From: an uncultured Candidatus Saccharibacteria bacterium | Lineage (GTDB): Bacteria > Patescibacteriota > Dojkabacteria > SC72 | Direction of reading: 5' to 3' | DNA length: 39,759 nt | Assembly: GCA_964557565.1 (NCBI GenBank) | Contig: CAZLAH010000001.1 | Coordinates: 37,112 to 76,870 of the forward strand | Shown here: positions 3,193 to 24,299 of the stretch, one piece after another | How positions within the stretch are numbered: position 1 is the stretch's first letter | Layout: each line of letters opens with the position of its first letter | Position numbers and translations under genes: made by a program | The notes under the pieces: generated by a model | Seen by the model: only the letters and a program-made list of their open reading frames with translations | What the model was told of the DNA's origin: nothing | Databases searched by the model: none

Positions 3193-3648
3193 CTATCTAA
3201 CAATCTCTAGCCAATTCTCTTTTAACCACATATCTGCCATATCCTGCTCTTCTATTAAATCTCTCTTAATCAATTCCTTCTTAATAATATTCCCTTGATG
3301 AGGATTTAAGAACCTCTTCTCTAATGGAGAACTAAAACCATGAGCATAATGACATAACTCATGAGCTACAGTAGCCCTAACTACATACTCAGGTATATAC
3401 TCATTCTTGTAATAGCTAGTTACAGTAATTACAGTAACACTCTTGTCATCCTGCACATCATAATCATCCCTTTTCTTTCTTAACAATCCCTTTATCCTTG
3501 TACCATCTCTTGCCAACTTAATACTCCCTAACTGTCTCTTGGAATACTTCCCAAACTTAATAACGACCAAATTCTTCCTTGGTATATCACAAAAATGATT
3601 ATCCCAAAGATCATAAAGTACTTCTTCTAAATAACTATTATCTCTCAT
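3193..3648 (-). CDS. SprT/DUF45-like small zinc metallopeptidase
   Basis: 151 aa with HExxH in TVAHELCHYAHG plus a downstream His (NPHQG). It is the only gene in the window with a strong SD (GAGAGGAGGAG, 9 nt before the ATG). Confidence 0.65.
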   Translation of the reverse strand: MRDNSYLEEVLYDLWDNHFCDIPRKNLVVIKFGKYSKRQLGSIKLARDGTRIKGLLRKKRDDYDVQDDKSVTVITVTSYYKNEYIPEYVVRATVAHELCHYAHGFSSPLEKRFLNPHQGNIIKKELIKRDLIEEQDMADMWLKENWLEIVR

Positions 3649-6384: not shown

Positions 6385-7600
6385 AAAGATAGAATCCTTA
6401 ATCAACGAAGAATCCAAGAGGCAGATAGAAGGTATAGAATTAATTGCATCTGAAAACTATGTGAGTGAAGATGTTTTAGAAGCAATGGGTTCCATCCTTA
6501 CTAATAAATACTCTGAAGGATACCCATTTAAAAGATACTATGGAGGTAATGAATATATAGATAAGATAGAGCAAGAGGCAATAGATAGAGCAAAAGAGCT
6601 TTTTGGTGCAGATCATGTAAATGTTCAACCATATTCTGGATCTCCAGCAAATTTAGCAGTACATTTAGCATTAGTAGAACCAGGAGACAAGACATTGGGT
6701 ATGGCACTAGATGCGGGTGGACATCTTACACACGGTTTCAAGGTATCCATATCTGGAAAGTACTTTGATTCTGCAAGCTATGGTGTGAATGGTGATGGGT
6801 ATATTGACTATGAAGAGGTTCTAAAGATTGCAAAATCACATAAGCCCAAACTCATATGGGCTGGCTTCTCTGCATATTCTAGAACCATTGATTGGAATGA
6901 GTTTAGAAAAATTGCTGATGAAGTTGGAGCTTACCTTGTAGCGGATATATCCCATGTTGCAGGATTAGTAGTAGCAGGATTGTATCCATCTCCAGTAGGT
7001 ATTGCAGATGTAGTCACAACAACCACCCACAAGACGCTCAGAGGCCCTAGGGGAGCCATAATCATGTGTAATGAGGAATTAGGGGAAAAGATAGACAAAG
7101 CAGTATTCCCAGGATTACAGGGAGGTCCACATAATCATACAACCGCAGGTATTGCTGTTGCTTTACAAGAAGCGTCTACAAAGGAATTCAAAGAATATGC
7201 TATGCAGATAATTGCTAATGCAAAGAAACTTTCAGATGAACTTACCTCAAGAGGATATGTAATCATATCTGGAGGTACGGATAATCATCTTTTCCTTTTA
7301 GATACAGTTAAGTCTTGTAACATGACGGGAGCAGAACTCTCCAACCTTTTGGAAAAAGTTAATATAACGGTAAACAAGAACGCTATCCCTAATGACAAGA
7401 GAAAACCATGGGATCCCTCAGGTATTAGAATTGGTACACCGGCTGTTACAACAAGAGGTTTGAAAGAAAAGGACATGGAAAAGATAGCAGAATATATAGA
7501 TAGAGCTGTGAAGAACAAAGATAATGAGAAAGAGTTAGGAAAATTGAAAGAAGAAGTAAAGATATATATGTCCGACTTTCAAATACCAGGTATAAAATAA
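6371..7600 (+). CDS. glyA: serine hydroxymethyltransferase
   Basis: 409 aa. [11 protein letters not shown], the PLP-lysine motif [13 protein letters not shown], and GLQGGPHNH. Overlaps the folD end by 14 nt. Confidence 0.97.
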
Positions 7601-7611
7601 ATATAGAATAT

Positions 7612-9207
7612 ATGAAATTAAGCTTCAGAAAAGATTTAAACATAGCCTCTCTAACATCGGAATCTAATTGGAACAAATTCAAAGTTCATACTCTTCTACA
7701 AAACTGTGAGACGAAACAACCATCCATAAATGCATATCTTGGAGCAAGATACAGTAGATCCTCAGATTCCATACTTGATATTGCAAATGAGATAATAAAA
7801 AGTGGTACAGATGCTTCTGAAAGATTAGAAAAGATATTCTCAGGATATGGACATAAATCAGTTGGAGATATGGCAGATATTTTTGTATGTATAGAAAACA
7901 TCCCAATATATACAGCAATGAAGATCTTTTACATGACATCTGTAGTATCTGGACAGGAAAGATCCACTAGGTACCAGAATTTTGAGAATCCAGAATTCGT
8001 AAAAATTCCAAGAGAGGTATGTGAAGATCATAATGTAAGGAAAGAATATGAAAGAATAATCATGAAGCAAATGAAAGATTACAGAGAACTGCTTAAGGAA
8101 ACAAAGGATGCTCTTTCAGAGGCTTTTCAAATAAATGAAGAAAGCCAAGATGAAGTATCTGCGTTGAGATCAAGAAGCTTTGATGTAGCTAGATACCTAC
8201 TTCCATATGGATTGAACACAAGCTCTGCATATCTAATGTCGGCAAGAAATTGGTCTGAAATAATTAGCTATCTCTGTTCTAGTGATACAGTAGTTGAAAA
8301 TGAGTTGCATACATTGCTAATAAACCTTCTTGGAGACTCTAAATTAGAAGTAAAGGGATATACAAGAGAAGCGGATGGTCTTCTTCGACATACTGATGCA
8401 AATTGTTGTAGAAAGGTTTCCACTAGAAGCGTCTTAGAATATATGAAGAAAGGATTAAGCATGGAGCAGTTAACAGAGTTACCTGAAAATGAATGGGAAT
8501 CTGTAAATGTAACATACTCTCCTGATTGTACTGAAACTCTTATCTCTCACTACGAATTACTTCTTAATCCTCTTGGATCCAAAGAGGAATTTGAATTTAC
8601 CGAAGAGGATCAGGAAAATATTGGTAATATTCTTTTTGAAAAGCATGATCATCACAATTTACTTGGTAATATAGGGCAATCAGGAGCAATAAAGGTTTCT
8701 GGTTTTGCATCTTTGGGAACACTGAAGGATTTAAATAGACATAGAAGTTTGGAAAGGTTCATACCTCTTTTTCATGATGAAATAGATATGGATCAAGAAC
8801 TAAATAGAAGAAATGATAGTTGCTTTTTTCTTTGTGACTATCTTGATATACCAAGTCTTTCTAAATTGAGGGGAAAATATTCAGAGAAATTAGAAGAGAC
8901 ATATAAAATGATAAAAGAGTGGAGAGAGAAGCATAGGGATATTCTCTCAAAAGAAGTATGTGATGAATTTACAAAATATCTTCTACCTCACGCTCATAGT
9001 ACAAAGTATGTATTCTATGGTTCTTTTGATGATTATCAATATATTGTTAATCTCCGAACTAGAAATGGAGGTCATATCGCATACAGGAAATTGACGTATG
9101 AATGGTTAAGGAAATTAGCAAACAAAGACTTTGTGTGGAGGCCGTTATTAAAGAAAATAGTGGAGCCTAAGATAGATGATAAGCATCAATTTATTGATAG
9201 AAGTTAA
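7612..9207 (+). CDS. thyX: long (tandem two-repeat) flavin-dependent thymidylate synthase ThyX-like protein
   Basis: 531 aa. The N half has YGHKSV...SGQERSTRY (SxRY part of the ThyX motif) and VARYLLPYGLNT. The C half has HDHHN...LNRHRS (RHR) and YLLPHAHST...NLRTRNGGH. It sits between glyA and dcd. Confidence 0.65.
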   Translation: MKLSFRKDLNIASLTSESNWNKFKVHTLLQNCETKQPSINAYLGARYSRSSDSILDIANEIIKSGTDASERLEKIFSGYGHKSVGDMADIFVCIENIPIYTAMKIFYMTSVVSGQERSTRYQNFENPEFVKIPREVCEDHNVRKEYERIIMKQMKDYRELLKETKDALSEAFQINEESQDEVSALRSRSFDVARYLLPYGLNTSSAYLMSARNWSEIISYLCSSDTVVENELHTLLINLLGDSKLEVKGYTREADGLLRHTDANCCRKVSTRSVLEYMKKGLSMEQLTELPENEWESVNVTYSPDCTETLISHYELLLNPLGSKEEFEFTEEDQENIGNILFEKHDHHNLLGNIGQSGAIKVSGFASLGTLKDLNRHRSLERFIPLFHDEIDMDQELNRRNDSCFFLCDYLDIPSLSKLRGKYSEKLEETYKMIKEWREKHRDILSKEVCDEFTKYLLPHAHSTKYVFYGSFDDYQYIVNLRTRNGGHIAYRKLTYEWLRKLANKDFVWRPLLKKIVEPKIDDKHQFIDRS

Positions 9208-9224
9208 ATTATTATTCAAACAAA

Positions 9225-9791
9225 ATGATACTTTCAGATAAAAGTATAAAAGAGAAGATTAAGAAAGGTAGTATAACTATAAAGCCTTTTAAGGAAGAAT
9301 TCCTTCAGCCTGCTTCGTATGATTTACATTTAGATAAGTATTTTCTTGTATTCAATAAAGAAGAGATAGGTATATTAGATGTTAAAGAGAAGCCTAAGAA
9401 ATTAATGAGAGAGATAGTAGCAAATGAAAAGGATGGATTCATAATTCATCCAGGAGAATTTGTATTAGCAAATATAGTTGAAGTAACAGGTGTAGATAAT
9501 ATGCATGTTGGTAGGTTAGAGGGTAAAAGCTCTTTAGGAAGAATAGGGCTAATCATTCATGCTACAGCAGGTTTCCTAGATCCAGGTAACAAGCTTCGAT
9601 TAACATTAGAACTAGCTAATGTCTCTCCAATACCAATAAAGATATATCCTGGTATGAAGATTGCACAAATAGCTTTCGAAGAGCTTACTACAGAGTGTGA
9701 AAGGCCATATGGGTCATCAGAGCTAAATAGCAAGTATGTAGGTGACACAAAGGTCAAAGAAAGCCAAATGTGGAAGAATTTTTCTAAATAA
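9225..9791 (+). CDS. dcd: dCTP deaminase (possibly bifunctional dCTP deaminase/dUTPase)
   Basis: 188 aa. MILSDKSI..., QPASYDLHL, GRLEGKSSLGRIGL and the dUTPase-like fold pattern. Confidence 0.9.
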   Translation: MILSDKSIKEKIKKGSITIKPFKEEFLQPASYDLHLDKYFLVFNKEEIGILDVKEKPKKLMREIVANEKDGFIIHPGEFVLANIVEVTGVDNMHVGRLEGKSSLGRIGLIIHATAGFLDPGNKLRLTLELANVSPIPIKIYPGMKIAQIAFEELTTECERPYGSSELNSKYVGDTKVKESQMWKNFSK

Positions 9792-9799
9792 AAACTCTC

Positions 9800-11023
9800 C
9801 TACATTTGAGGAGGTACAGGAGGAAGTTCTTCTTCTGGTTGCTGTACTGGTGGTGTTACAGGAGTATTCTCTACGACCGGTTGTGTGACAGAAGTCTCTT
9901 CAGCCATCTGACCTGCAGGAATCTGTTGTATCTCGTTATTTACTAATTGTTGTAGATCTATTGCTTTCTCTTCGACATTTATAGTCTCAGGAGCACTAGT
10001 TACAGGAACTTCTGGAGCTATGTTCTCATTCATTACAGGTATAGCCTCTGGTAGGTTGTTGTTTGTCATTGGAGTTGAAAGAGGTGTTTCCATAGGACTT
10101 TCCATAACTGGAGGATTTGCAACAGGAGCAGCTTCTACAACAGGAGGTACAGTAGGAATATCCATCTTTACCTCAGGTTCGCTCTCTTTAGCTATTAAAT
10201 CCTTAAGATCATTTTGTTCCATACTCTGTTCTACAGGTGCTTGCATAGGAGGAGTTTCTACAGGAGTAGCAGTTACATTGTTTGAATTAACCATATCTTT
10301 TAAAGTAGGTTCTTTGGTAACTGTTTGTGTTTCAGTATTGCTCTCAACAGTTGGCTCTGTTTGAGGAGTTGTTTCTACAACATTGTCATCTTTCTTTCTA
10401 GTAAGAAGAACGCCAACAATACTTATTAGCAGAATTACAGAACCTCCAAGAAGTATGTATGGCAAATACTCCATTATATCAATACCAAAAAATGTTGAAC
10501 TACTAGATGATGTATCGTTTGTATTTGTAGAAACCAAAGCAACATCTTCTGTTGTACTCTCTGTTTCTGTCTCTGTAGTTGTAGTTTCCTCTGTTGTGGT
10601 TACAACCTCTCCAACATTAACTACAGTTCCTAATGTTGCATCACCCAAATCAACTGTATCTTCTACAACTGTTATACTGTAATCTTCACTCTCTGTAGTA
10701 AATATAATGTTAGCGACGATACCCTCTACTACAGTAGCCTCATCGAAAGTACATAGAAAATCAATTGAAGCAGCATCAATAGTAGGGGTAAATTCGCTAC
10801 ATACGACAGTACCACTATTTACTTCTGAAAATGTTATATCTTCTGATCCTTCTATTGTAAGTTGAATACCTTCTAAGGCATCAGTTCCTGAGTCTATTGT
10901 TAATGAGGCACTTTTGATAGTAGTTGTAGACTTATCCGCTAAGGTAATATCAACAGCTGCGAGAACTCTCAAAGGTAGTAAAAAGAATGAAAGCAAAAGG
11001 ACAGAGAGAAATACTTTTTTCAT
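9800..11023 (-). CDS. type-I membrane surface protein: signal peptide, cohesin-like beta-sandwich, Thr/Ser linker, TM helix, ~200-aa Pro/Glu/Val/Thr-rich tail
   Basis: 407 aa. Signal peptide MKKVFLSVLLLSFFLLPLRVLA/AV. T/E/S-rich linker at residues ~141-176. TM helix YLPYILLGGSVILLISIVGVLLT followed by RKKDD, then a low-complexity P/E/V/T tail to the C-terminus. Confidence 0.8.
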   Translation of the reverse strand: MKKVFLSVLLLSFFLLPLRVLAAVDITLADKSTTTIKSASLTIDSGTDALEGIQLTIEGSEDITFSEVNSGTVVCSEFTPTIDAASIDFLCTFDEATVVEGIVANIIFTTESEDYSITVVEDTVDLGDATLGTVVNVGEVVTTTEETTTTETETESTTEDVALVSTNTNDTSSSSSTFFGIDIMEYLPYILLGGSVILLISIVGVLLTRKKDDNVVETTPQTEPTVESNTETQTVTKEPTLKDMVNSNNVTATPVETPPMQAPVEQSMEQNDLKDLIAKESEPEVKMDIPTVPPVVEAAPVANPPVMESPMETPLSTPMTNNNLPEAIPVMNENIAPEVPVTSAPETINVEEKAIDLQQLVNNEIQQIPAGQMAEETSVTQPVVENTPVTPPVQQPEEELPPVPPQM

Positions 11024-11052
11024 AGTTTGGACAGTTTATATTATTCACATTT

Positions 11053-11081
11053 AGATTATCATTTGTAATACATCATGTCAA
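11053..11081 (-). promoter_or_regulatory. sigma70-type promoter for the 9800-11023 gene
   Basis: Read on the minus strand: TTGACA (11081-11076), 17-nt spacer, TAATCT (11058-11053). Confidence 0.45.
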
Positions 11082-11090
11082 AACAAATAT

Positions 11091-11119
11091 TTGACTTAAA
11101 GTAGTAAGAAATATACACT
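11091..11119 (+). promoter_or_regulatory. sigma70-type promoter for the Lon-like AAA+ gene
   Basis: TTGACT (11091-11096), 17-nt spacer, TACACT (11114-11119). Back-to-back with the divergent promoter. Confidence 0.45.
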
Positions 11120-11143
11120 TGTATATACATTTAAAACTGCCTT

Positions 11144-12337
11144 ATGGACTATCAAAATACATACAACAATAGTAGTCAATTCCCTTCAACAAGCTCTCAA
11201 GTAGAAGAGAACTTGAACGAGGTTTTGGCTTTGGAAAACAAACTAGCTACCTCTAATGCACCGGTTGGATTAAAAGAAGAAGCTATGAGAAGTGTTCAAA
11301 GATTAAAGAGAATGTTTAGAATGGGAGGCTACAGTAGCGAATTTGAGAATGTGAATAAGTATATAGATTGGATTACTAGAATACCTTGGGGGATTCTCTC
11401 CCAAGATAGTTTTGATATTCAAAATGCTAAAAAACTAATGGATAGTACTCATTATGGTATGGATACGATTAAGGATTTGATTCTTGATTATCTTGCTACT
11501 ATGCAACTTCAAAGCAGAGGTGTTGTCTCAACTATGCCTACTCAAGTAAGAATGAATGAAATGGATCAAACATCAGCTACTATGGTTAAATTAAAGGGTT
11601 CTTCTGCCAATGCACCTGTATTTCTTTTTGTAGGTCTACAAGGTGTAGGTAAAACCTCTATTGCCAAATCAATAGCTTCTTCTATGGGAAGAAAATTCAT
11701 AAGAGTATCACTTGGTGCAATTGGTGACGTTCGTACTTTAAGGGGAACACCTAGATACTCAATCGATGGAGAGCCAGGACAGATAATAAAGGCATTGATT
11801 AGATGTGAGAGTATGAATCCAGTTATATTGCTTGATGAAATAGAGAAATCTAGTGGTAATGCAGGTCTTCTTAACGATGTTATGGCAACTCTCTTGGAGA
11901 TATTAGATCCAGAACAGAATGCAACATTTGTCGATCATTATATCGATTATCCAGTAGATCTTTCTAATGTATTCTTCATATGTACTGCAAATAATCTTGG
12001 AGGCCTCTCTGCAGCTTTACTCGATCGTGTTGAGGTAATTAGATTTACTAGCTATTCTGATGAAGAAAAAGAAGTAATTGCTAAACAATATATTCTTCCA
12101 AAGGTATTAGAAAATCTTCATCTTACATCTGATCATATAAAGATAGAGGAAGAGGTATGGCCATTAATTATTCGTCCAGTAGGTTTTGATGCTGGTATTC
12201 GTCAACTTGAAAGAAATATTACTACCTTAGTAAGAAGTGCTGCTAGAATGATTATTGAAGGCCAGCAATTCCCAATAGTAGTCAATGCTACGAATCTAAG
12301 TCAATTTGTTCTAGCTGACCAAGGACCATTAAGCTAA
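11144..12337 (+). CDS. stand-alone Lon-type AAA+ ATPase (no Lon N-domain, no protease domain)
   Basis: 397 aa. Collinear with the Lon coiled-coil plus AAA+ module: YIDWITRIPW, HYGMDTIKDLILDYLA, Walker A GLQGVGKTSIAKSIA, Walker B ILLDEIEK, LEILDPEQNATFVDHYIDYPVDLSNV, LLDRVEVIRF, AGIRQLER. Ends at the point where the Lon protease domain would begin. Confidence 0.85.
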   Translation: MDYQNTYNNSSQFPSTSSQVEENLNEVLALENKLATSNAPVGLKEEAMRSVQRLKRMFRMGGYSSEFENVNKYIDWITRIPWGILSQDSFDIQNAKKLMDSTHYGMDTIKDLILDYLATMQLQSRGVVSTMPTQVRMNEMDQTSATMVKLKGSSANAPVFLFVGLQGVGKTSIAKSIASSMGRKFIRVSLGAIGDVRTLRGTPRYSIDGEPGQIIKALIRCESMNPVILLDEIEKSSGNAGLLNDVMATLLEILDPEQNATFVDHYIDYPVDLSNVFFICTANNLGGLSAALLDRVEVIRFTSYSDEEKEVIAKQYILPKVLENLHLTSDHIKIEEEVWPLIIRPVGFDAGIRQLERNITTLVRSAARMIIEGQQFPIVVNATNLSQFVLADQGPLS

Positions 12338-12585
12338 TACCCTTTAAAAGGATTTACTAATTTCAATGAAGATACTGCTCTCTGTAGTTGTGGATTCTTA
12401 ATGTTCTTAGCAATATTTGCTTTGTACTGACTTTTCTCTTCTGCCTTTTTTAGAAGATCTAAGTCTGTTTGAGAAGTTTGTTCTGGAATAGAGGAGGTAT
12501 CTACTTGTTTTGTAACAAGGTAGTTACTCTCATCCAAAAAATTTACATTCACATTACTATTGTTTGATTGATCCATTTTCTTCAT
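12334..12585 (-). CDS. small hypothetical protein, last gene of the VirB4-like module
   Basis: 83-aa N/Q/S/K-rich ORF with ATG start and no TM helix. Its start overlaps the VirB4-like stop by 29 nt. It is the only ORF covering this otherwise non-coding stretch in a very compact genome. Confidence 0.4.
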   Translation of the reverse strand: MKKMDQSNNSNVNVNFLDESNYLVTKQVDTSSIPEQTSQTDLDLLKKAEEKSQYKANIAKNIKNPQLQRAVSSLKLVNPFKGY

Positions 12586-14998
12586 CCGGATAACTTTGAA
12601 TAAGGCCTTGAGGAGTAAGATGAGACTTACCCTTTTGTATTTCCTCTCTGGACTTTGTAACTTGACCTGAGAGAGTTTTAGACTTCAGCTCTTGTAGGAA
12701 TGTTGTCTGAGATTTCTGTTTCTCTGGATTTAGCTCCATTTCTTGCATTCTCAATCTCTCTGCTAATTCCTTCTGATAATTCACTCTTTCTTCTTCAAGT
12801 ATATTCTCGTGTGTTCTTGTTTTATCTATGGCTTCTCTGATAATTTGATCTTGTCTTAAAGTGCTCATATCTTGGACTTTAACTTGTTGAGCAGGAGGCT
12901 CAAATATCTGAGCAAGTTCTTCTATACTTCTAGTATCTGTAGTTCCTTTTCTCTCTTTTAATTTCTCTAAATCTCGAGGATCAGATGTAATAATTTCATG
13001 TTCTGCTTGACTTGATATTACTTGGATTCCTACATGATTTGAACCAGCGAAAAATAGTCCCTGTCCTTTGTCACATGTAAGAAGGAAATTCCTTTCACCA
13101 TCAGAAAGATTGAAAACTTCCTGTAGCTTTTCTAAAGAAGAAGGACTTTGTTTCATTAGCATTTGCAAAGAGGAGTTAGAGATAATTGCTTTCCCCATAT
13201 CATTGTTTAAGAAATCTGCTACATCTTGTGTGATTGTTGATAGTCCTAAGTAATACTTCCTTGCTCTTTTTGCAATGGAGTACATGAAATTTGCAGAATC
13301 TTTTGATTGCATCATATACCAAGCTTCATCTACTATTAATAGTCTTCTCTTACGATCTTTCCTGATCTTGGTCCAAATAAAATCGAGCATAAGGTACATA
13401 GCAAGTGGTTTTAGTTCCTCTTGTAGATCTCTAATACTAAATACGGTGAAAGGATTGCTAATCTCGAAGTTACTGGCTTCGTTAAAGACTCCAGCACCAC
13501 TACCAATGATGTATTTCTCTAATCTTCTTGCTAAACCATGCGCCTCATTTTCTGCCATACCTTTGAGAACTTTATACAGATCTTCAAGTAGGGGAGGTTG
13601 TTTTGTTTGAGTAGCAGGATCAAATGTTATACCCTTCTCTCTATATGTAAGAATTAATGCTTTATCGAGAATAGATCCTTCAATACTAGTTATATCACCG
13701 AAAAGAACGCGGAAGAATCCCTGTAAGGAAAGCATCTTCATTCTTAATTCGTCATCTCCTTCTTCTGATACTCCTGAGAGCTCGAATGGATTCATCTTGT
13801 TTCCTTTGTCTTGAGAGAAGGAAATATATGCACCATTAACGGCATGTGAGAGATTTTCATACTCTCTTTCTGGATCTATGATTATTATCTCGGTACCAAG
13901 CATAAGGCTTCTTACAGCTTCTAATTTTACGAAGTAGCTCTTACCTGCACCTGACTTCGCAAATACAACTGTATTTGCATTCTCTAATTCAAATCTGTCA
14001 AATATAACTAAACTTCTATTATGCATATTTATGCCGTACATAATTCCATGATCCATAGTTAACTCTGAAGTTACAAATGGGAATGTAGTCGCCAAGGATG
14101 TAGTATCCATATTTCTTGTGATATACAGATTGTCGATACCCAAAGGTTGTGTACTTACAAATCCTTGCTCTTGTTGGAGTGTAGTAGGCTTTGCAGTAAC
14201 ATTTATAGCTGCAAGTGTAGAGATGACATTACGCGTATATTTTTCTAGAAGATCCTTATCTTCTGCATATATATTTATATACATTGAAAAATGGAAGAAC
14301 TTCTCAGTACCCTCCGCGATTGAATCCTGTAACTGCTGTGCGTCAGAAAGGGCAACTTTTAATGATGGGTCTACAACTTTTCTCTCTTCCATCTGTGCAT
14401 AGAGGGAAGCTTCCATCTCACCAATCTTCTTCTTCAATTTTTCTAATATCGTTTTTGAATCTACAGGATAGTAAAAGGTACTAATTCTCAGAGAGTGTTC
14501 AAAGTTAATGATTGGAGATAGCCAGTTAGGTCCTACAAATCTTGGATATCCACTTACGAAAAGAGTCTTGAAATAGTAATTACCCATTTGTAAGTGATTA
14601 AAATCAACCTCCAAATCTATCGGTGCAATGATATCTTGTATAGACATTTCTTCTCCATTCTCTATATTTATTGTATTTTGAATAATCTGCTCTTCTTCTT
14701 CCTGTTCTTTCTCTTTCTTCTTTTTAGACCCACCAAACATATCTTTGACATTCTCAAGGACCATCTCTGCTAAACCCTTTTTCTTTTTAATTTCTTCATC
14801 TTCAACTAAAGGATCAAAATACTTGTTACGATTATCACCATCATCTTTTGGTTCTACACTCTGTATCTCCTTCTGGATAGTCTCTCTAAACTGGGCATAC
14901 TTCTCTCCCTTTGTTTGAAACTTGTTTTGAGATTCCTCAAGCATCTTGCTTGTTGTATTCTCAATCCCTTGGTTGTTTAAACTATTTATATCTACCAT
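12557..14998 (-). CDS. VirB4/TraC/PrgJ-family type IV secretion-like ATPase
   Basis: 813 aa. Walker A VVFAKSGAGKSYFVK, Walker B RRLLIVDEAWYMM, RARKYYLGLSTITQDVADF (RK...TQ..D motif). VirB4-type N-domain (NYYFKTLFVSGYPRFVGPNWLSPIINF). Has charged low-complexity N- and C-terminal extensions. Confidence 0.85.
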   Translation of the reverse strand: MVDINSLNNQGIENTTSKMLEESQNKFQTKGEKYAQFRETIQKEIQSVEPKDDGDNRNKYFDPLVEDEEIKKKKGLAEMVLENVKDMFGGSKKKKEKEQEEEEQIIQNTINIENGEEMSIQDIIAPIDLEVDFNHLQMGNYYFKTLFVSGYPRFVGPNWLSPIINFEHSLRISTFYYPVDSKTILEKLKKKIGEMEASLYAQMEERKVVDPSLKVALSDAQQLQDSIAEGTEKFFHFSMYINIYAEDKDLLEKYTRNVISTLAAINVTAKPTTLQQEQGFVSTQPLGIDNLYITRNMDTTSLATTFPFVTSELTMDHGIMYGINMHNRSLVIFDRFELENANTVVFAKSGAGKSYFVKLEAVRSLMLGTEIIIIDPEREYENLSHAVNGAYISFSQDKGNKMNPFELSGVSEEGDDELRMKMLSLQGFFRVLFGDITSIEGSILDKALILTYREKGITFDPATQTKQPPLLEDLYKVLKGMAENEAHGLARRLEKYIIGSGAGVFNEASNFEISNPFTVFSIRDLQEELKPLAMYLMLDFIWTKIRKDRKRRLLIVDEAWYMMQSKDSANFMYSIAKRARKYYLGLSTITQDVADFLNNDMGKAIISNSSLQMLMKQSPSSLEKLQEVFNLSDGERNFLLTCDKGQGLFFAGSNHVGIQVISSQAEHEIITSDPRDLEKLKERKGTTDTRSIEELAQIFEPPAQQVKVQDMSTLRQDQIIREAIDKTRTHENILEEERVNYQKELAERLRMQEMELNPEKQKSQTTFLQELKSKTLSGQVTKSREEIQKGKSHLTPQGLIQSYPDEENGSIKQ

Positions 14999-15000
14999 AT

Positions 15001-15633
15001 CTATTCGTCTGGATTATATATTGTGTAAAATTCAGTTATTAATTCTTTTGTAGTAAGTTGATGACCATACAATCCCATTTTACTTAATTGCTTAAGAATG
15101 TGATCTCTTTTGGGGAAAAGAAAAAGCTTTGCTTTCTCTACAAGTTGATCTGTTTGCATCTTCTGATATCTTTCTTGTTCTTCTTTGTTTTTCTTTGAAT
15201 CAAAAAGATTCGCACCTGGTAATTGAAGGGCAGGGCTGTAAGGTACAACTAAGAAAAAGCTCTTGTCCAAAACATCATTTTGCACAATTAAGTTCTGTAC
15301 AAATGAAGTATATATTTCTAACTGTTTCTTCAAACCATCGCTCATTGGTTTCTCTTTTTGCTCTTTAAGATAGTCTATGTAGTTTGTAATATCAATTCTT
15401 TTAGTACGAATTAAAATCTGGATTCTGAAATTCAAAGAATTAAGTAATCCTGCAAAAGCATAAATTTTACTATCTTGCTCATACTCTGCAAGAAGATCAA
15501 AATTGATTGCAGATGTTTGAATTACCATTGATACAGTACCATTCTTGTTCACAATTAAGTCATCTACGATCTCTCTCAGAGCTAAATGCTCTTGTGTTGA
15601 TGAAGTTGTTCTTGCTCTTGCATTCTTATCCAT
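15001..15633 (-). CDS. hypothetical soluble protein of the VirB4-like module (possible VirB4 N-domain-like paralogue)
   Basis: 210 aa with no TM helix. Its ATG directly abuts the upstream stop (TAG at 15634-15636) and its own stop lies 2 nt from the VirB4-like ATG. Pattern NGTVSMVIQTSAINFDLL...LLNSLNFRIQILIRTKRIDITNYIDYLKE. Confidence 0.75.
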   Translation of the reverse strand: MDKNARARTTSSTQEHLALREIVDDLIVNKNGTVSMVIQTSAINFDLLAEYEQDSKIYAFAGLLNSLNFRIQILIRTKRIDITNYIDYLKEQKEKPMSDGLKKQLEIYTSFVQNLIVQNDVLDKSFFLVVPYSPALQLPGANLFDSKKNKEEQERYQKMQTDQLVEKAKLFLFPKRDHILKQLSKMGLYGHQLTTKELITEFYTIYNPDE

Positions 15634-16458
15634 CTATATTGCGTTAATCTTAATAGGTAATCTGTTTTCTTTGTTAGTTAATACAATCTGAACATTTGGA
15701 AACTTAAATTGTGGATGTTCAAAATTCAAAACATACACTCCAGGATCCCATATTTTGTTTGTTAGGAAATATCCATTAGGTCCAGTCTTGTTTGCGTAAA
15801 GCATTTTACCATCTTTGCTTCTTAAATATACTATGGTATTTGGTATTGGCTTTAACTCTTTTGTACAAAGCCAAATATTGATATTGCCAGGCAAACTATC
15901 TGAGCTACTAATGTTAAACTGGAAATTTTCTAAATTCTCATCAGTAATTACAAGATTGTTTGGATCTAAAGAAGCAACTACTGGCTCCATTTCTTCTTTT
16001 ACTTCTTCCATCTCACTAGTAACAACATCTTCTTCGCTACTTTGGGTATTCACAAAAGAAGCACCAATTATTTTTGGTTTCTCATCTTTAATCTCTTGAG
16101 GAACTAATTTCCCTTCCTCATTTGGTTTAACAGCGGGTTTTACTCTTTCAGCTTTCATCTTCTTGTTTAACCAAGCTCTTTGAGTAGGGTTGTTAATAGC
16201 TGTAATATAGCTTTGAATAAATTTGTCTGCATCTTGATCATTGATTGGTACCAAGCCGAGGAAGATACCAGAAACAGAGGAAAGAAAGAAAACGGGGATA
16301 CCAAGTATAGCGGGAATTACCTTGTCTACAGTTAAATATATCATCAATCCACCGAAGCCAATACCAAGTGCCAAGTAGGCGAATTCTTTTAAGGTAAACT
16401 TTGTAAAAAGTTTAAATTCCACATCTAATACATTTTGAGGAATTGCATGTTGTCTCAT
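15634..16458 (-). CDS. PrgI/VirB3-like membrane protein fused to a CarboxypepD_reg-like beta-sandwich domain
   Basis: 274 aa. N-terminus IPQNVLDVEFKLFTKFTLKEFAYLALGIGFGGLMIYL plus a second TM helix (IPAILGIPVFFLSSVSGIFLGLV) matches the PrgI-family hairpin. The C-terminus IVYLRSKDGKMLYANKTGPNGYFLTNKIWDPGVYVLNFE resembles the carboxypeptidase regulatory-like fold. Confidence 0.7.
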   Translation of the reverse strand: MRQHAIPQNVLDVEFKLFTKFTLKEFAYLALGIGFGGLMIYLTVDKVIPAILGIPVFFLSSVSGIFLGLVPINDQDADKFIQSYITAINNPTQRAWLNKKMKAERVKPAVKPNEEGKLVPQEIKDEKPKIIGASFVNTQSSEEDVVTSEMEEVKEEMEPVVASLDPNNLVITDENLENFQFNISSSDSLPGNINIWLCTKELKPIPNTIVYLRSKDGKMLYANKTGPNGYFLTNKIWDPGVYVLNFEHPQFKFPNVQIVLTNKENRLPIKINAI

Positions 16459-16532
16459 AGGCAGATTTTACTATTTTTACATCATAAAGTTTAGCAGAAT
16501 ATTAAAGAAAGTTTTAGTAGTATAATTAAAAC

Positions 16533-20197: not shown

Positions 20198-20761
20198 TTA
20201 GAGATCTGTTTTCTCTATGATACTCATTGTGAAAGTTTCAGAGAATTGTACATTCCCAAAATTCTCTACAACCAAAAATACAACAGCTTCATCATTTGGA
20301 GCTAATTTAATTTCTTGATTGTATCCAAAACCTTTGTCGTCTTGTAATTTGTATGTATCATTACCAATCTTTAAATATATGTTTGATCTTACATTCGACT
20401 CTGTTTGTCCATAGAAATACAAAGTTTTTGATTCTGAATTTTTATTTTCAACCTTTAATATTGGTTTTGAGTAGCTATCAGCTTCCCTTTTATTTATGTT
20501 TACAAAGTATTCATATCCTTTTTCTGATTTATTTAGTACTTCAGAAGTAAAGATATTATGCTTACCCTCTACAAGTGATACTGAGATATTGTTCTCTGTA
20601 GTTACACCTAAGATGTTTAATTTTTCTAATTGTTTTGTAATTGGAGAAAGATTGAGAACTGTAATGCTTGGAATTATGAAAAACAAAGCTAACAAACCTA
20701 AAGCAAAAGGTTCTAGAATCTGTAAAAACACTTTTTTTGCAACTTCTTTTCTATTATACAT
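20198..20761 (-). CDS. hypothetical N-terminally anchored membrane/exported protein
   Basis: 187 aa with a single N-terminal TM helix (ILEPFALGLLALFFIIPSITVL) and a beta-rich remainder. No recognisable family. Confidence 0.65.
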   Translation of the reverse strand: MYNRKEVAKKVFLQILEPFALGLLALFFIIPSITVLNLSPITKQLEKLNILGVTTENNISVSLVEGKHNIFTSEVLNKSEKGYEYFVNINKREADSYSKPILKVENKNSESKTLYFYGQTESNVRSNIYLKIGNDTYKLQDDKGFGYNQEIKLAPNDEAVVFLVVENFGNVQFSETFTMSIIEKTDL

Positions 20762-20766
20762 ATCTC

Positions 20767-21315
20767 TTAGTAATATCTATTGTTTCTTGGATATATATTA
20801 TCAGTTTCCAATTCGAATGTCTTCATAGTACCCCATATACTGAACAATGCTGTCACTCCTGCTACTATTCCTATCCATTGGTAGCAATTACCTTGTAATG
20901 TTTGTAGTATGACAATTATTGAAGCTAGTGTTAGGAAAGAAGACCAAAGGAATATTAACAGGAAGGAGGTATCTTTCTTCGTTATCCAATTTAAGATGTT
21001 TAATCTTGTGATTTTGACAATGGTTTTTGGATTCTGTAGTGAAGATTGGTAAATGGAAGTCTTTATGATGAAGTAGAATGTTGGTATTGCTAAAAGGATT
21101 AGCATAGCGAGATTTGAATATGAATTAACAAAAAGAGTAGTGTTGAAATCTGTAAAATATATCTGTACAGAGTAGATACCATTTACATTATTGTCTACGT
21201 AAAACTCAAGATCATATATGATGCCTACAATTACCATTCCCAAGAATTTAGCCAGAATCATTAAAATAGCTGGCCAGAGAGAAATTTTAAGAGCCCTTCT
21301 TAGCAGTTTTGACAT
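20767..21315 (-). CDS. hypothetical polytopic membrane protein
   Basis: 182 aa with about 4 hydrophobic helices. Its start overlaps the rpsT end by 29 nt. Confidence 0.65.
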   Translation of the reverse strand: MSKLLRRALKISLWPAILMILAKFLGMVIVGIIYDLEFYVDNNVNGIYSVQIYFTDFNTTLFVNSYSNLAMLILLAIPTFYFIIKTSIYQSSLQNPKTIVKITRLNILNWITKKDTSFLLIFLWSSFLTLASIIVILQTLQGNCYQWIGIVAGVTALFSIWGTMKTFELETDNIYPRNNRYY

Positions 21316-21678: not shown

Positions 21679-22086
21679 ATGGTAAGAGGTAAGAAAACAA
21701 AGATAGTTTTAAGTGTTTTTTTAGTATGTTTAATATTTACAGTTGCTGTAGGATATTTTTTCTTAAAGAAGGAAGAGGAGAATACGGAATTGGAGAATGT
21801 AAAGGGTGTTACAAATGTGTCTGGTGTTCCATATATTGTTAATACTCCTCCTGTTTCTGCTATTATCGGAGAGGAGTATGTTTTTGTGATACAGGTAGTA
21901 GATTCAGATTCCAAGAAGAGTAAAATGTCATATGACTTAGTAGAAGGACCATCTTGGCTGTTTCTAGAGGGTAGTAGATTAAAAGGGACTCCTACAGTTG
22001 GCAGTGAAGGTACATATAGAATTGTCTTAAGGGTGTCTGATGGTAGCAATTCTTCTACAAAAGAGAGCTATATTTTAGTAGAATAG
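21679..22086 (+). CDS. N-anchored protein with one cadherin-like / putative-Ig (He_PIG-type) domain
   Basis: 135 aa. TM anchor IVLSVFLVCLIFTVAVGYFFL, then GEEYVFVIQVVDSD...YDLVEGPSWLFLEGSRLKGTPTVGSEGTYRIVLRVSDG. Confidence 0.7.
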   Translation: MVRGKKTKIVLSVFLVCLIFTVAVGYFFLKKEEENTELENVKGVTNVSGVPYIVNTPPVSAIIGEEYVFVIQVVDSDSKKSKMSYDLVEGPSWLFLEGSRLKGTPTVGSEGTYRIVLRVSDGSNSSTKESYILVE

Positions 22087-22090
22087 TTGA

Positions 22091-22498
22091 ATGAAAGTTA
22101 AACTGTTTGTTTTCTTAGGTGTGTTTTCTGTTCTGATAGTTTCGGTGTCAGCTATTTTACTCGTTGCAAAGAATGTCTCTAGTTTTGATATGTTTGGATC
22201 TAATGATAATGAATGTGTACCTTACAATGTATTTGTAGAGAAAGGTAGCAAAGATTACTCTGTGAATATTTCTTGGTCAACAAAAAATAAGTGCTTTTCT
22301 TTTGTACAGTATGGTTTGGATGAAAAGAGTATTAATATGATTGGGGTAGATTCTTCTTCGAGTTCTAAATCAAAAGAGCATTTAGTAGTATTGGAGAAAG
22401 TCTCTCCAATAGATAGATATTTCTTCTTGATAAATTCTGATAATCAAACATATGGTAATAATGGTATTCCTTTAGAGTTTTCTTTTAGTAATCTTTAG
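22091..22498 (+). CDS. N-anchored protein with one FN3-like domain
   Basis: 135 aa. TM anchor LFVFLGVFSVLIVSVSAILLV, then YSVNISWSTKNKCFSFVQYG...HLVVLEKVSPIDRYFFLINS (FN3 / purple-acid-phosphatase-N-like pattern). Confidence 0.7.
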   Translation: MKVKLFVFLGVFSVLIVSVSAILLVAKNVSSFDMFGSNDNECVPYNVFVEKGSKDYSVNISWSTKNKCFSFVQYGLDEKSINMIGVDSSSSSKSKEHLVVLEKVSPIDRYFFLINSDNQTYGNNGIPLEFSFSNL

Positions 22499-24261
22499 GA
22501 TTTTCTTCTTAGTTTTCTGATTGTTTTCTCTTCGAAGTATCTCTTTGGGTTGAATAATTTCCATGATACTATTTCTGCAGACTTGAAAGCTTTTGATTCT
22601 ACTAATTTACTTACCATTACTCTTCCAAAAGGTCTATTGTATATATACCAACCAATTGAGAGCATAATTATGCCAAGTAGTACTCTGCTAATGGTGCTAT
22701 CAAATAGTCCTGTTTGAGGAGTAGATGGTGTTGTTGGAGTGGTAGGTGTAGTTGGTGTTGTTGGAGCTTCACAATCTTGTTGTACACTTATGACATATTC
22801 TGTTCTTAGAGATGATGGATCTGCAGGTATCTCAACAGGAGTTATTATTGCCTCATTTTGGTTCGATCCTGTAAGAGCACTTGCACCTACAGAGGCTTGA
22901 AAGAGTATGACCAATGATTTGCCACTATCCAAACTCCATCCATCTGTCTTACTCCATACGATCTCCTTACTATCTCCAACATCAGTAACTTTTACATAGT
23001 CATTGTCATTTACCAAGACACCATTTATCTTTGTAGTACTTTGTACATACGCAAAACCAAGAGGTAATTTATCTTTTACAGAAGATATCACCTGAGCCTT
23101 AGAGCTATTGTTTGTTGTAGTTATTGTAAAGAGAACTGTATTGTTCGGAGAAACTCTCTCTACACACTCTAAATTGGCTGCTTTTGTAACTAAGAAATTA
23201 GATTCCTCCTTTGTTTCTCCTTCTTCTTCTTGTAGTGATTCTTTTGTTGGGAAAATCACAGATGTTGTAGTAGAACCTATGGAATCATTACTGTCTTGGA
23301 CGTCAACCGTTATTTTCATCTCTCCTTCATAGTCATTTAATTGTGAGAAACTAGTAGCTGTTGTAAAGTTGTCAGCGCTATACAAATCTTGTTCTAATAT
23401 CGTTATCTCTCCTTTTGCTGTGTCCAATGTAAACCCATCCTTCATTGTTATATTTGGGTAATTTTTACTAAAGGAGAAGAGTAGTGTGATGTCTGAATCA
23501 TCCTTTAGATTTCCTGCTTTAATTGTAATGTTAGAAAGCTTAAAGGTTTGATTATCAATTCTTGTTTGTACCTGCATCTCATTTACATTCGAAGAACCTT
23601 CTTGATCAACCTCAATTAATCTCCTACAAAGAGGAGAGTTAATCTGCTCCAAATTACTATCTTTTCCAGTAGCTACAATATTTAAAGAAGAAGAATCAAA
23701 AGAGCTTAATGTCTTTTTGATGGTTAATTTGTCAGGGGATATGATATCTGGTTCTACAGGTTCGTTATTGATTGTAAAAGAGTAGTCCGTATATTCTTTG
23801 TTAAACTTCGCCTCAATTGTAACTTCGTCATCTGTAGATATTTTCCCAGTTACAATTTTTCCATCTTTGTCTTTAACAATCATCTCTGAACATCTAGTAT
23901 CTTGTATTGTTTGTAATTGACATATTTGGAAAAGGTCTTGTTGTGTACTACTTTTAAGAAGATTTGTAGAAAGCTTACTTGTAGAACATGCCGCTTTACA
24001 TGTTTGGTCCTCAGGTACAGTAATAGTTTCAAACATGAAGCCTCTTCTAGGATCACTACATTCGGATATTACTGCAGGATCTATGTAGTAACAACCACAA
24101 GTTTTGGTCTTTGTGCCTTCACTATCAGTAGTATCTTTTATGGCGTAGAAATATATGGCTACACCAATTAATACTATCCCCAAAAAACCAACTATAGCAA
24201 TGAGAATAGTGATTGTTTTCTTAGGTGCTCTTGTTGTGGTTACTCTTCGAACTTCATCCAT
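22495..24261 (-). CDS. large surface protein with Cys-rich N-region, DUF11-like repeat domain, (TTP)n linker and sorting-signal-like C-terminus
   Basis: The ORF track starts at a TTG (24276); the first ATG is at 24261 (MDEVRRV...). N-terminal TM anchor. DUF11-like segment LVTKAANLECVERVSPNNTVLFTITTTNNSSKAQVISSVKDKLPLGFAYV. C-terminus TTPTTPTTPTTPSTPQTG plus a hydrophobic helix and a K/R-rich tail. Confidence 0.8.
   Translation of the reverse strand: MDEVRRVTTTRAPKKTITILIAIVGFLGIVLIGVAIYFYAIKDTTDSEGTKTKTCGCYYIDPAVISECSDPRRGFMFETITVPEDQTCKAACSTSKLSTNLLKSSTQQDLFQICQLQTIQDTRCSEMIVKDKDGKIVTGKISTDDEVTIEAKFNKEYTDYSFTINNEPVEPDIISPDKLTIKKTLSSFDSSSLNIVATGKDSNLEQINSPLCRRLIEVDQEGSSNVNEMQVQTRIDNQTFKLSNITIKAGNLKDDSDITLLFSFSKNYPNITMKDGFTLDTAKGEITILEQDLYSADNFTTATSFSQLNDYEGEMKITVDVQDSNDSIGSTTTSVIFPTKESLQEEEGETKEESNFLVTKAANLECVERVSPNNTVLFTITTTNNSSKAQVISSVKDKLPLGFAYVQSTTKINGVLVNDNDYVKVTDVGDSKEIVWSKTDGWSLDSGKSLVILFQASVGASALTGSNQNEAIITPVEIPADPSSLRTEYVISVQQDCEAPTTPTTPTTPTTPSTPQTGLFDSTISRVLLGIIMLSIGWYIYNRPFGRVMVSKLVESKAFKSAEIVSWKLFNPKRYFEEKTIRKLRRKS
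22717..22764 (-). repeat. imperfect 9-bp tandem repeat encoding (T-T-P)x5
   Basis: On the minus strand: cca aca aca / cca act aca / cct acc act / cca aca aca / cca tct act cct, giving PTTPTTPTTPTTPSTP. Confidence 0.7.
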
Positions 24262-24299
24262 TAACGGCAGTAACAATTTTAAGATAATTGCTCACACAA

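Follow-up and report, generated by a model that had tools for sequence, protein, structure and literature searches.

What are a VirB4-family ATPase and a PrgI/VirB3-like membrane protein doing among the housekeeping genes of a member of Candidatus Dojkabacteria (WS6, Patescibacteria/CPR), with no conjugation machinery beside them? A first-pass annotation of this DNA had read them as an orphan, domesticated and minimal VirB4-driven machine. We examined all ORFs of at least 80 aa for family membership in the window, by which we mean the whole stretch of 39.7 kb that was analysed. From 186 relatives found, 80 species representatives of Dojkabacteria/WS6 (MAGs) were kept for comparison.

Layout of the module

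Four minus-strand ORFs are tightly packed at 12334-16458. The ORF list and direct reading of the sequence bore out the packing, coordinates, junctions and motifs described in the first-pass annotation. In the order of transcription, preceded by the spacer upstream, the features are:

16459-16532, no strand: intergenic spacer of 74 nt separating the PrgI-like gene from the divergently oriented nucleotidyltransferase gene
15634-16458, minus strand: PrgI/VirB3-like ORF, 274 aa
15001-15633, minus strand: TrsD-like ORF, 210 aa
12557-14998, minus strand: VirB4-family ATPase ORF, 813 aa
12334-12585, minus strand: small ORF, 83 aa (80 aa from the second ATG)

As read from the sequence, the stop of the PrgI gene abuts the next start (ATA TAG ATG), a 2-nt gap separates the TrsD-like gene from the VirB4 gene (TAG-AT-ATG), and the VirB4 stop falls within the start of the small ORF. 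This overlap amounts to 29 nt from the first ATG of the small ORF and to 20 nt from the second, and the 80-aa form beginning at the second ATG is the one recorded by public gene callers. The spacer at 16459-16532 is presumed to be the promoter region because it is the sole non-coding DNA upstream of the module. A consensus promoter scan of the region returned sites at chance level (25 against 26.8 expected).

The 813-aa protein is a VirB4-family ATPase

The motifs FAKSGAGKSYF, LLIVDEAW and RK..TQ..D as well as KKKKEKEQEEEEQ were all found in the 813-aa translation. The NCBIfam model NF045971 (VirB4-like, CD1110 family) scored 384.1 bits with a cut-off of 325, and the models VirB4_plasma and TraC gave 285 and 175 bits, respectively. 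With Pfam, P-loop_TraG reached 93 bits and AAA_10 48 bits, and CagE_TrbE_VirB, with 19 bits, lay slightly below its cut-off. The VirB4 C-terminal domain structure PDB 4ag5 matched residues 337-671 with an E value of 1e-48. Given the NF045971 score above cut-off and the match to 4ag5, the earlier assignment was correct and the protein is a VirB4-family T4SS ATPase.

Two further matches could be taken to indicate a HerA/FtsK-type or phage terminase-like NTPase instead of VirB4, namely Pfam DUF87 (HerA central domain) with 31 bits and PHROG phrog_2666, annotated 'terminase large subunit', with 94.8 bits. A comparison with HerA/FtsK-type families had been named beforehand as the test of the VirB4 assignment, and VirB4 stands: the DUF87 score is set against those of the three VirB4 models given above, the strongest of which exceeded its cut-off. 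The 4ag5 match and the neighbouring PrgI and TrsD genes likewise speak against this identity, which the score comparison refutes and to which we assign next to no likelihood.

The conserved core of the ATPase spans residues 114-680 and comprises the remaining N-terminal domain and the RecA-like C-terminal domain with Walker A and Walker B. The charged, low-complexity extensions noted earlier at both ends (residues 1-113 and 681-813) are real, though poorly conserved, and lineage-specific. Identity was 20-26% in the N-terminal tail, 42-47% in the C-terminal tail and 83-85% in the core, the last being the average identity to the window's VirB4 across the 80 species representatives; for the whole protein it ranged from 60 to 87% across the same set.

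The VirB4 N-terminal domain is divided between two polypeptides

The 210-aa protein had previously been described as soluble and left without a family. The first part of that description holds, as a transmembrane segment is absent; the protein is not an unknown, since alignment and fold mark it as a TrsD-like, split-off sub-domain of VirB4. It matched NCBIfam TrsD NF041427 with 33.6 bits (E 3.3e-8), short of the curated cut-off of 200, and is a significant but distant relative of the TrsD/TraD family. The N-terminal part of VirB4_plasma NF045975 was matched at E 2e-7, the precomputed Pfam assignment is PF26593 TraC-like, and tblastn with the protein matched genes annotated as TrsD/TraD. The TrsD-like family comprises 1,533 representatives of 50%-identity clusters, and 77 of 80 related loci carry the gene, with identities of 56-88%.

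In BLASTP, the 210-aa protein corresponded to residues 5-167 of a single-chain VirB4 of 754 aa encoded on the Carboxydocella plasmid pCCELLA01 (E 5e-12), and residues 114-680 of the 813-aa ATPase align with residues 178-750 of the same protein (E 2e-68). The ATPase aligns with the NF045971 model from position 180 onward only. The N-terminal domain is thus not complete on one polypeptide, its first ~170 residues coming from the separate 210-aa protein. The AF2 model of this protein (pLDDT 84) was compared with the PDB by Foldseek, and the top 14 matches were all R388 TrwK/VirB4 chains, with modest TM-scores of ~0.42. In another CPR lineage, PrgI lies beside a 787-aa protein in which TraC-like and VirB4 parts are fused.

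We conclude that the second and third genes encode one VirB4 split into two polypeptides, as in pGO1-type systems: the TrsD-like protein is the detached N-terminal sub-domain, and the 813-aa protein contributes the rest of the N-terminal domain and the Walker A/B ATPase domain. The pair is collinear with single-chain VirB4 proteins (R388 TrwK, PDB 7o41/8rtb; Thermoanaerobacter VirB4, 4ag5; the pCCELLA01 protein), with a 4ag5-like C-terminal domain and a TrwK-like fold in the 210-aa protein. Unlike these, the Dojkabacteria protein consists of two polypeptides, and the ATPase chain begins, at its new N-terminus, with a low-complexity tail.

The PrgI/VirB3-like protein and the small NPF[KR]G protein

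The 274-aa protein matched Pfam PF12666 PrgI over residues 6-86 with 31 bits (cut-off 27), and its close homologues carry the NCBI name 'PrgI family protein'. Its AF2 model begins with an N-terminal helix, followed by two transmembrane helices (~23-44 and 50-69) and two short helices (77-89 and 93-104). An acidic disordered linker of about 60 aa (~105-165) then leads to a C-terminal beta-sandwich of about 105 aa (~168-272, pLDDT ~90) of the transthyretin-like/carboxypeptidase-regulatory-like type, for which Foldseek returned transthyretin-like, CnaB and carboxypeptidase D regulatory domains at E values of 4e-5 to 1e-3. VirB3 proteins are small (10-15 kDa) with short cytoplasmic ends (PMC12857230); at 274 aa, with linker and beta-sandwich, the Dojkabacteria protein exceeds this description. 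The gene was found in 72 of 80 related loci, and the combination of PrgI with CarboxypepD_reg recurs in other CPR lineages. The PF12666 score, the two predicted helices and the position directly upstream of trsD-virB4 uphold the earlier call of a two-helix PrgI/VirB3-like protein, and the first gene is a VirB3/PrgI two-helix membrane protein with an extra C-terminal domain.

Several motifs are conserved in the small, hydrophilic protein: YLVT, DL..L.KAE.K and, at the C-terminus, L.L.NPF[KR]G. The protein matched no family at curated cut-off in Pfam, NCBIfam or PHROGs; Pfam gave weak sub-threshold matches of at most 19.4 bits, and NCBIfam and PHROGs gave none. In 73 of 75 related loci, virB4 was immediately followed by a short ORF whose product ends in NPF[KRQ]G. 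The family consists of 54 proteins, none with a Pfam assignment, and all members with an organism name come from Dojkabacteria or bear a Microgenomates label (the closest-relative MAG, L001). The small protein is the product of a lineage-restricted, conserved fourth gene of the module and a probable partner protein.

The module is chromosomal and vertically inherited

Beyond the module, the ORFs of the window encode housekeeping, surface or uncharacterised proteins. The neighbours include GroES/EL, an ABC protein, FolD, SHMT, ThyX, DCD, a Lon-like AAA protein, NTase, RecF, LepA and S20, as well as HolA, LCP, MltG, RuvX, AlaRS, SBP, sortase, DnaJ, NusA, IF2 and S15. The order S20-..-LepA-RecF-NTase-PrgI-TrsD-VirB4-orf83-Lon-..-DCD is conserved in the 80 species representatives. 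The location among housekeeping genes that the first-pass annotation had described is therefore shared by the related loci, including the Lon-like and NTase/RecF/LepA flanks, and the proposed check for recurrence of the four-gene order beside such genes came out positive. In some related genomes, insertions beside the module hold a DMT transporter, an inositol monophosphatase or an ABC transporter.

In agreement with the earlier reading, profile searches found no relaxase, VirD4 coupling protein, integrase or other T4SS gene in the 39.7-kb window beyond the module. A VirB6-like channel, a VirB2-like pilin, a VirB8-like protein, a hydrolase and a T4CP were found neither in the window nor within ±10 kb of virB4 in the related loci. 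The term 'minimal' accordingly applies to the window and these ±10 kb only. The window also contained no tRNA gene that could serve as attachment site, its flanking repeats were short, chance-level matches, and its GC content showed no anomaly. Because VirB4 and the gene order are conserved in 80 representatives, and tRNA genes, meaningful repeats and a GC anomaly are lacking in the window, we conclude that the module is old, vertically inherited and chromosomal, and not an ICE remnant.

Such a remnant, in which the ATPase core alone survives from a decaying, non-functional integrated conjugative element or plasmid, would fit the absence of other transfer genes from the window and the fact that, outside CPR, the module is most closely related to VirB4, TrsD and PrgI from conjugative plasmids and ICEs of Firmicutes. 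Decay is at odds with four intact ORFs, tight start/stop coupling that has been kept, the high mean identity of the VirB4 core and a position among housekeeping genes retained class-wide. A conjugative element would have a relaxase and a type IV coupling protein, both absent from the window, and would leave integration signatures; neither integrase, tRNA, att-like repeat nor compositional shift was present, and the same locus occurs in the 80 representatives without a patchy distribution. The conservation data effectively refute the remnant, and we give it only a very slight chance.

Relation to known systems

The order VirB3-like, TrsD/TraD, VirB4 is shared with the Firmicutes MPF_FATA systems of pGO1/pSK41 (TrsC-TrsD-TrsE) and pIP501 (TraC-TraD-TraE). 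VirB3-TrsD-VirB4 also occurs in this order on the Peribacillus plasmid pSHB26, in a conjugative-type locus with VirB1, VirD4 and TrbL. The pGO1/pSK41/pIP501-type loci add VirB1 hydrolase, VirD4 and TrbL/VirB6 and lie on mobile replicons, whereas none of these genes is linked to the Dojkabacteria locus, whose TrsD match is well under the curated family cut-off.

A closer counterpart is the chromosomal T4SS of Patescibacteria. A survey of 3,035 Patescibacteria genomes recorded VirB4 in 2,417 of them and TrsD adjacent to VirB4 in 1,664, with relaxase nearly absent; its dataset includes Dojkabacteria, which the preprint version names (Quinonero-Coronel et al. 2025, Microb Genom, PMC12102498). In Southlakia epibionticum ML1, T4SS genes (SEML1_0006-0019) are essential for epibiotic growth, and neither a relaxase nor a coupling protein was recognisable in this T4SS (Wang et al. 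2023, Cell, PMC10633639). Our locus agrees with this system in its Patescibacteria chromosome and housekeeping context, the consecutive VirB3/PrgI, TrsD and VirB4 genes without a nearby relaxase, and its affinity to the MPF_FATA type, the Gram-positive mating-pair-formation class. The same core order appears in the Table S3 row for GCA_000505065.1 (genes 533-535; PMC12102498), and PrgI - TraC-like - VirB4 in three other CPR loci.

The locus differs from the known Patescibacteria T4SS in several respects. VirB6, a VirB2-like pilin array and a peptidase/hydrolase, present in Saccharimonadia loci and L087, are missing beside virB4 in the window and within ±10 kb in relatives. The module is not beside dnaA/dnaN, although recF is adjacent; the ATPase has charged tails of ~110 aa (N-terminal) and ~130 aa (C-terminal); and the lineage-restricted NPF[KR]G protein follows virB4. 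Since VirB4 is conserved vertically throughout the class and the published dataset covers Dojkabacteria, the window's VirB4 likely belongs to the monophyletic Patescibacteria clade nested in MPF_FATA. The module is real but not new: chromosomal VirB3-TrsD-VirB4 T4SS without relaxase have been published across Patescibacteria including Dojkabacteria, and therefore its framing as 'orphan' or novel fails. Its description as a 'domesticated', non-conjugative T4SS-derived machine agrees with the chromosomal location and the lack of a relaxase in the window.

Proposed role

Taken as a whole, the module is very probably the cytoplasmic-membrane ATPase core of the chromosomal T4SS characteristic of Patescibacteria. 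The N-terminal domains of VirB4 are embedded in the membrane and make contact with VirB3 as well as VirB8 (PMC12857230). By analogy with R388 and Gram-positive systems, VirB3 would anchor VirB4 to the membrane via the VirB4 N-terminal region, with the TrsD-like protein providing this region in trans. A VirB4 hexamer would use ATP to build a T4SS that spans the envelope, and might also drive transport through that system. On the same analogy, the other components, namely a wall hydrolase, a VirB6-like channel and VirB2-like pilins, may be encoded elsewhere or be too divergent for recognition. A complete envelope-spanning apparatus would then exist in the Dojkabacteria organism, although channel, pilin, VirB8, hydrolase and T4CP were found neither in the window nor within ±10 kb of virB4 in related loci.

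Alternatively, Dojkabacteria could have lost the VirB6 channel, pilins and hydrolase, leaving a truly minimal, self-sufficient machine in which VirB3, TrsD, VirB4 and the NPF[KR]G protein form a new translocase, alone or with unrelated envelope proteins. We know of no case in which VirB4 acts without a membrane channel partner, which counts against this proposal. Across all loci examined, just these four genes are linked, the insertions beside the module carry unrelated genes, and Dojkabacteria have additional conserved motifs in the ATPase tails as well as the lineage-specific fourth gene. All of this would suit a self-sufficient machine, as would the report that in some Patescibacteria classes VirB6 is rare or escapes detection (PMC12102498). 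The observed absence, however, covers about 10-25 kb around virB4 only; T4SS genes of Patescibacteria are dispersed, with T4CP and VirB2-like genes mostly distant from virB4 (PMC12102498), and homologues of VirB6 and VirB2 have diverged too far for simple HMMs to detect them. We consider loss of the remaining components improbable.

For the ATPase core of a Patescibacteria T4SS, host interaction rather than conjugation is the most likely role, because the window lacks a relaxase and a coupling protein and the Southlakia homologue is essential for epibiotic growth. By this comparison, the system would probably serve pilus or channel biogenesis and the passage of macromolecules between epibiont and host.

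A more specific proposal is nucleic-acid import in the manner of archaeal Ced or of ComB in H. pylori, in which VirB4 would energise the entry of host DNA or RNA as nourishment for an organism without nucleotide synthesis. Ced resembles our module in its chromosomal VirB4-family ATPase (CedB), the missing link to a relaxase and a proposed function in nucleic-acid import. The CedB model NF041017 matched VirB4 weakly (50.2 bits, E 1.6e-13), far under both its cut-off of 700 and the score of the conjugative VirB4 model, and no CedA-like or ComB-like partner was found, PrgI and TrsD being present instead. Transport direction and substrate are without direct evidence in any Patescibacteria, and opinions differ: import of DNA or macromolecules is the preferred hypothesis in the genome survey (PMC12102498), whereas Wang et al. 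2023 prefer protein export or an alternative role (PMC10633639). According to a 2026 preprint, which regards VirB4 as ancestral, a cultivated patescibacterium takes up host RNA and possibly bears T4SS pili. Import is thus possible but, on balance, doubtful for our module; the nucleotide-salvage-type enzymes ThyX and DCD in the window would suit it, though they are merely syntenic neighbours.

Gene organization of the module

Direct inspection of the sequence agreed exactly with the four minus-strand ORFs, the junctions and the motifs described in the first-pass annotation:

Genes of the module, from ORF translation
15634-16458, minus strand, PrgI-like/VirB3-like protein, 274 aa
15001-15633, minus strand, TrsD-like protein p210, 210 aa
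12557-14998, minus strand, VirB4-family ATPase, 813 aa
12334-12585, minus strand, small NPF[KR]G protein, 83 aa

The stop codon of the PrgI-like gene abuts the start codon of p210 (ATA TAG ATG), the p210 and virB4 genes are separated by 2 nt (TAG AT ATG), and the start of the small ORF contains the virB4 stop codon, the overlap being 29 nt with the first ATG or 20 nt with the second. Use of the second ATG gives an 80-aa form, which is the one recorded by public gene callers (protein P0395). The 813-aa translation contains every quoted motif (Walker A, Walker B and low-complexity). The module packs into one compact unit the genes for a VirB3-like anchor, a VirB4 in two pieces and a small partner. 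The remaining sizeable ORFs of the window are all housekeeping, cell-surface or uncharacterised:

Other sizeable ORFs of the window
First set: GroES/GroEL, ABC ATPase, FolD, SHMT, ThyX, dCTP deaminase (DCD), Lon-like AAA+, nucleotidyltransferase, RecF, LepA, S20
Second set: HolA, LCP, MltG, RuvX, AlaRS, solute-binding protein, sortase, DnaJ, NusA, IF-2, S15

No tRNA genes were found in the window, and repeats flanking the module amounted to short chance-level matches. GC content is flat across the window, and scans for promoter and terminator consensus sequences gave hits at chance level.

A VirB4 ATPase encoded in two pieces

The 813-aa protein scored 384 bits against the NCBIfam VirB4-like CD1110 family (curated cut-off 325) and matched the solved VirB4 C-terminal domain 4ag5 with an E value of 1e-48, whereas its score against the HerA domain was merely 31 bits. 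A better match to HerA/FtsK-type families had been named as the outcome that would overturn the VirB4 assignment; given the large difference in scores, the assignment stands. A match of the same protein (12557-14998, minus strand) to the PHROG family phrog_2666, "terminase large subunit", at 94.8 bits was rejected as reflecting a mis-annotated VirB4-like family. The phrog_2666 label looks wrong and could mislead phage annotation.

The 210-aa protein had been left as an unknown soluble protein. Profile, collinearity and fold matches now identify p210 as a TrsD-like protein, i.e. a VirB4 N-terminal sub-domain made as its own polypeptide. It matched NCBIfam TrsD with an E value of 3e-8, its score falling short of the curated cut-off, and also the N-terminal part of the NCBIfam mycoplasma VirB4 model; the public precomputed Pfam assignment is TraC-like (PF26593). 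In tblastn searches, matches in Firmicutes plasmids fell either on a gene annotated trsD or on the 5' end of a VirB4 gene. In the single 754-aa VirB4 of Carboxydocella plasmid pCCELLA01, residues 5-167 align with p210 (E 5e-12) and residues 178-750 with the window ATPase (E 2e-68), so that p210 and the window ATPase together run collinear with a single VirB4. In another patescibacterial contig, L087, a fused version of 787 aa is encoded beside PrgI, a Peptidase_M23 protein and dnaN/dnaA:

T4SS core of L087, a groundwater CPR contig
6659-13513, PrgI (273 aa), fused TraC-like and VirB4 protein (787 aa), Peptidase_M23 protein (890 aa) and a 332-aa protein, directly beside dnaN and dnaA

This contig exemplifies the unsplit VirB4 and the origin-proximal placement known from the literature. 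In Peribacillus plasmid pSHB26, a small membrane protein, TrsD and a VirB4-type ATPase follow one another, with VirB1, VirD4 and TrbL alongside, an order of the pGO1/pIP501 type. The AlphaFold model of p210 (pLDDT 84) had chains of R388 TrwK/VirB4 as its best 14 PDB matches; searches of PDB sequences with p210, either as a single sequence or as a 45-sequence profile, gave no match, and the fold search alone succeeded. VirB4 is clearly a two-piece enzyme here, its collinearity being revealed by comparison with fused forms from a Firmicutes plasmid and another CPR lineage. The Dojkabacteria p210 family compared with the Dojkabacteria VirB4 family by hhalign gave no match (probability 0.04). Hence p210 does not duplicate the N-terminal stretch that the ATPase retains, and its relation to VirB4 emerges only against single-chain VirB4s.

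An extended VirB3-like protein and a small fourth protein

The product of the first gene passed the Pfam PrgI cut-off (31 bits, cut-off 27). In its AlphaFold model, the two expected transmembrane helices and some short helices are joined by a long, disordered acidic linker to a confident C-terminal beta-sandwich (residues ~168-272), for which the best PDB matches were transthyretin-like, carboxypeptidase-regulatory and CnaB-type domains. Proteins combining PrgI with CarboxypepD_reg, 464 and 530 aa in length, precede the same gene pair in two other CPR contigs (L086, 8548-9942, and L089, 1385-2977). The extended VirB3 is therefore not peculiar to Dojkabacteria, and its architecture recurs in other CPR lineages. 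Given the usual VirB3 topology, the transthyretin-like domain would be cytoplasmic. A description of such an extension was not found in the T4SS literature surveyed.

The fourth gene is genuine: of the 75 loci having sequence there, 73 show directly after virB4 a small ORF whose product ends in NPF[KR]G and shares further conserved motifs. The family comprises 54 proteins without a Pfam assignment; the six with an organism name are from Dojkabacteria or, in the case of the L001 MAG, from Microgenomates. We regard the NPF[KR]G protein as a candidate extra subunit.

Conservation of the module across Dojkabacteria

A scan of one genome per species yielded 186 relatives of the ATPase, and the best 80, with 60-87% identity, were kept. 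Nearly all of these 80 carry the label Candidatus Dojkabacteria or candidate division WS6, or a generic Patescibacteria-type label. Analysis of the same 80 loci by tblastn gave a class-wide order of S20, two membrane proteins, LepA, RecF, nucleotidyltransferase (-), PrgI-like protein, p210, VirB4, small ORF, Lon-like protein (-), surface protein and DCD (-). Several loci are curtailed by contig ends; p210 was detected in 77/80 and the PrgI-like protein in 72/80. Mean identity to the window protein was 83-85% in the VirB4 core (residues 114-680), whereas it was 20-26% in the N-terminal tail and 42-47% in the C-terminal tail, which holds a few conserved motifs. Hidden T4SS genes were sought in insertions adjacent to the module in related genomes, and the content was unrelated (DMT transporter, inositol monophosphatase-like enzyme, hydrolase, ABC transporter). 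The module is old and chromosomal, has been inherited vertically under strong constraint, and does not represent a mobile element that was gained recently or is decaying.

The neighbouring Lon-like AAA+ ATPase (11144-12337, plus strand, 397 aa) has AAA and Lon lid domains and lacks a protease domain. Its gene converges on the small fourth gene with a 4-nt overlap, a position kept in 73 of the best 80 of 186 loci.

Comparison with published patescibacterial T4SS and possible function

VirB4 has been reported in 2,417 of 3,035 Patescibacteria genomes, mostly as one clade nested in MPF_FATA, the Gram-positive mating-pair-formation class (Quinonero-Coronel et al., 2025, PMC12102498). In that study TrsD is the most abundant partner, adjoining virB4 in 1,664 cases, PrgI/VirB3 also adjoins VirB4, the systems are chromosomal with relaxases nearly absent, and the authors infer the repurposing of a monoderm conjugation system. 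Their dataset includes Dojkabacteria genomes, and the preprint version names Dojkabacteria. A homologous T4SS is essential for epibiotic growth of Southlakia (Wang et al., 2023, PMC10633639), and the patescibacterial T4SS featured in a 2025 review. The feature is thus real, correctly located and largely correctly identified, and its kind is already known: the first-pass reading as a domesticated, non-conjugative VirB4 machine was right in substance, whereas its novelty falls to the published view (PMC12102498, PMC10633639). Few machines are known to be essential for patescibacterial life as an epibiont, and the chromosomal T4SS is among them; credit for this belongs to the published work. Compared with the published systems, the Dojkabacteria locus is bare, lies beside recF rather than dnaA/dnaN, and encodes a tailed ATPase and the small NPF[KR]G protein. 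These peculiarities are incremental. The window adds detail alone, namely a VirB3-TrsD-VirB4 locus that is unusually bare and keeps a fixed place among housekeeping genes, the split VirB4, the transthyretin-like domain of VirB3 and the NPF[KR]G protein. Such details could guide structural modelling or pull-downs and open no new question.

The N-terminal domains of VirB4 are membrane-embedded and make contact with VirB3 and VirB8 (PMC12857230). By analogy with R388 and Gram-positive T4SS, the TrsD-like piece and VirB3 would tether the ATPase hexamer to the membrane, and the tethered VirB4 would supply the energy for building an envelope-spanning apparatus and possibly also for transport across it. 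The apparatus is the weakest step, as neither the window nor the ±10 kb around virB4 in relatives yielded a VirB6-like channel, a pilin or a hydrolase. Two conserved membrane proteins encoded at 20198-21315 (187 and 182 aa) were weighed as VirB6/VirB8 candidates; they had no family support, and the genes for LepA, RecF and the nucleotidyltransferase intervene before the module. The 593-aa surface protein gave a faint match of 16 bits, spanning a transmembrane segment, to a mycoplasma ICE "pilin-like" family, and this match was dismissed as spurious.

With neither a relaxase nor a coupling protein linked to the module, and with its Southlakia homologue essential for epibiotic growth, a role in host interaction is more likely than conjugation, with protein export, pilus building or import of host nucleic acid as candidate activities. 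We consider it improbable that the Dojkabacteria T4SS has been reduced to a four-protein machine without VirB6 channel or VirB2 pilus. Such a machine would consist of the extended VirB3 with its tethered transthyretin-like domain, TrsD, the tailed VirB4 and the lineage-specific NPF[KR]G-terminated peptide, and would mean that the partner or substrate of a VirB4 ATPase is new and lies outside the T4SS.

Other genes in the window

Two ORFs, at 3193-3648 (minus strand, 151 aa) and 2210-3190 (plus strand, 326 aa), had no family match. An HExxH-type motif in the former, VAHELCHYAHG, is suggestive of a small metallopeptidase-like protein. The ThyX homologue at 7612-9207 (plus strand, 531 aa) is about twice the usual length with two matched Thy1 domain stretches, and may be a tandem-fused ThyX. 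The alanyl-tRNA synthetase at 28165-29910 (minus strand) has just 581 aa, comprising catalytic and SAD domains without the usual long C-terminal region.

The GC skew changes sign together with the coding strand in two places, the convergent junction at ~11-12 kb and, at ~34.1 kb, the divergent junction between sortase and DnaJ. As dnaA is absent from the window, the flips probably reflect coding-strand composition and not an origin or terminus.

Several predicted surface proteins lie around the region:

Predicted surface proteins
9800-11023, minus strand
21679-22498, plus strand
22495-24276, minus strand
29930-31966, minus strand
33325-34128, minus strand

The set includes a Thr/Glu/Pro-rich membrane-anchored protein with a signal peptide, two small He_PIG/FN3-like proteins, a DUF11-repeat protein with a C-terminal anchor and a Big_7 protein, and a sortase is also encoded in this region. 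The 407-aa surface protein is poorly conserved, being detected in 29 of the best 80 of 186 loci with 29-57% identity.
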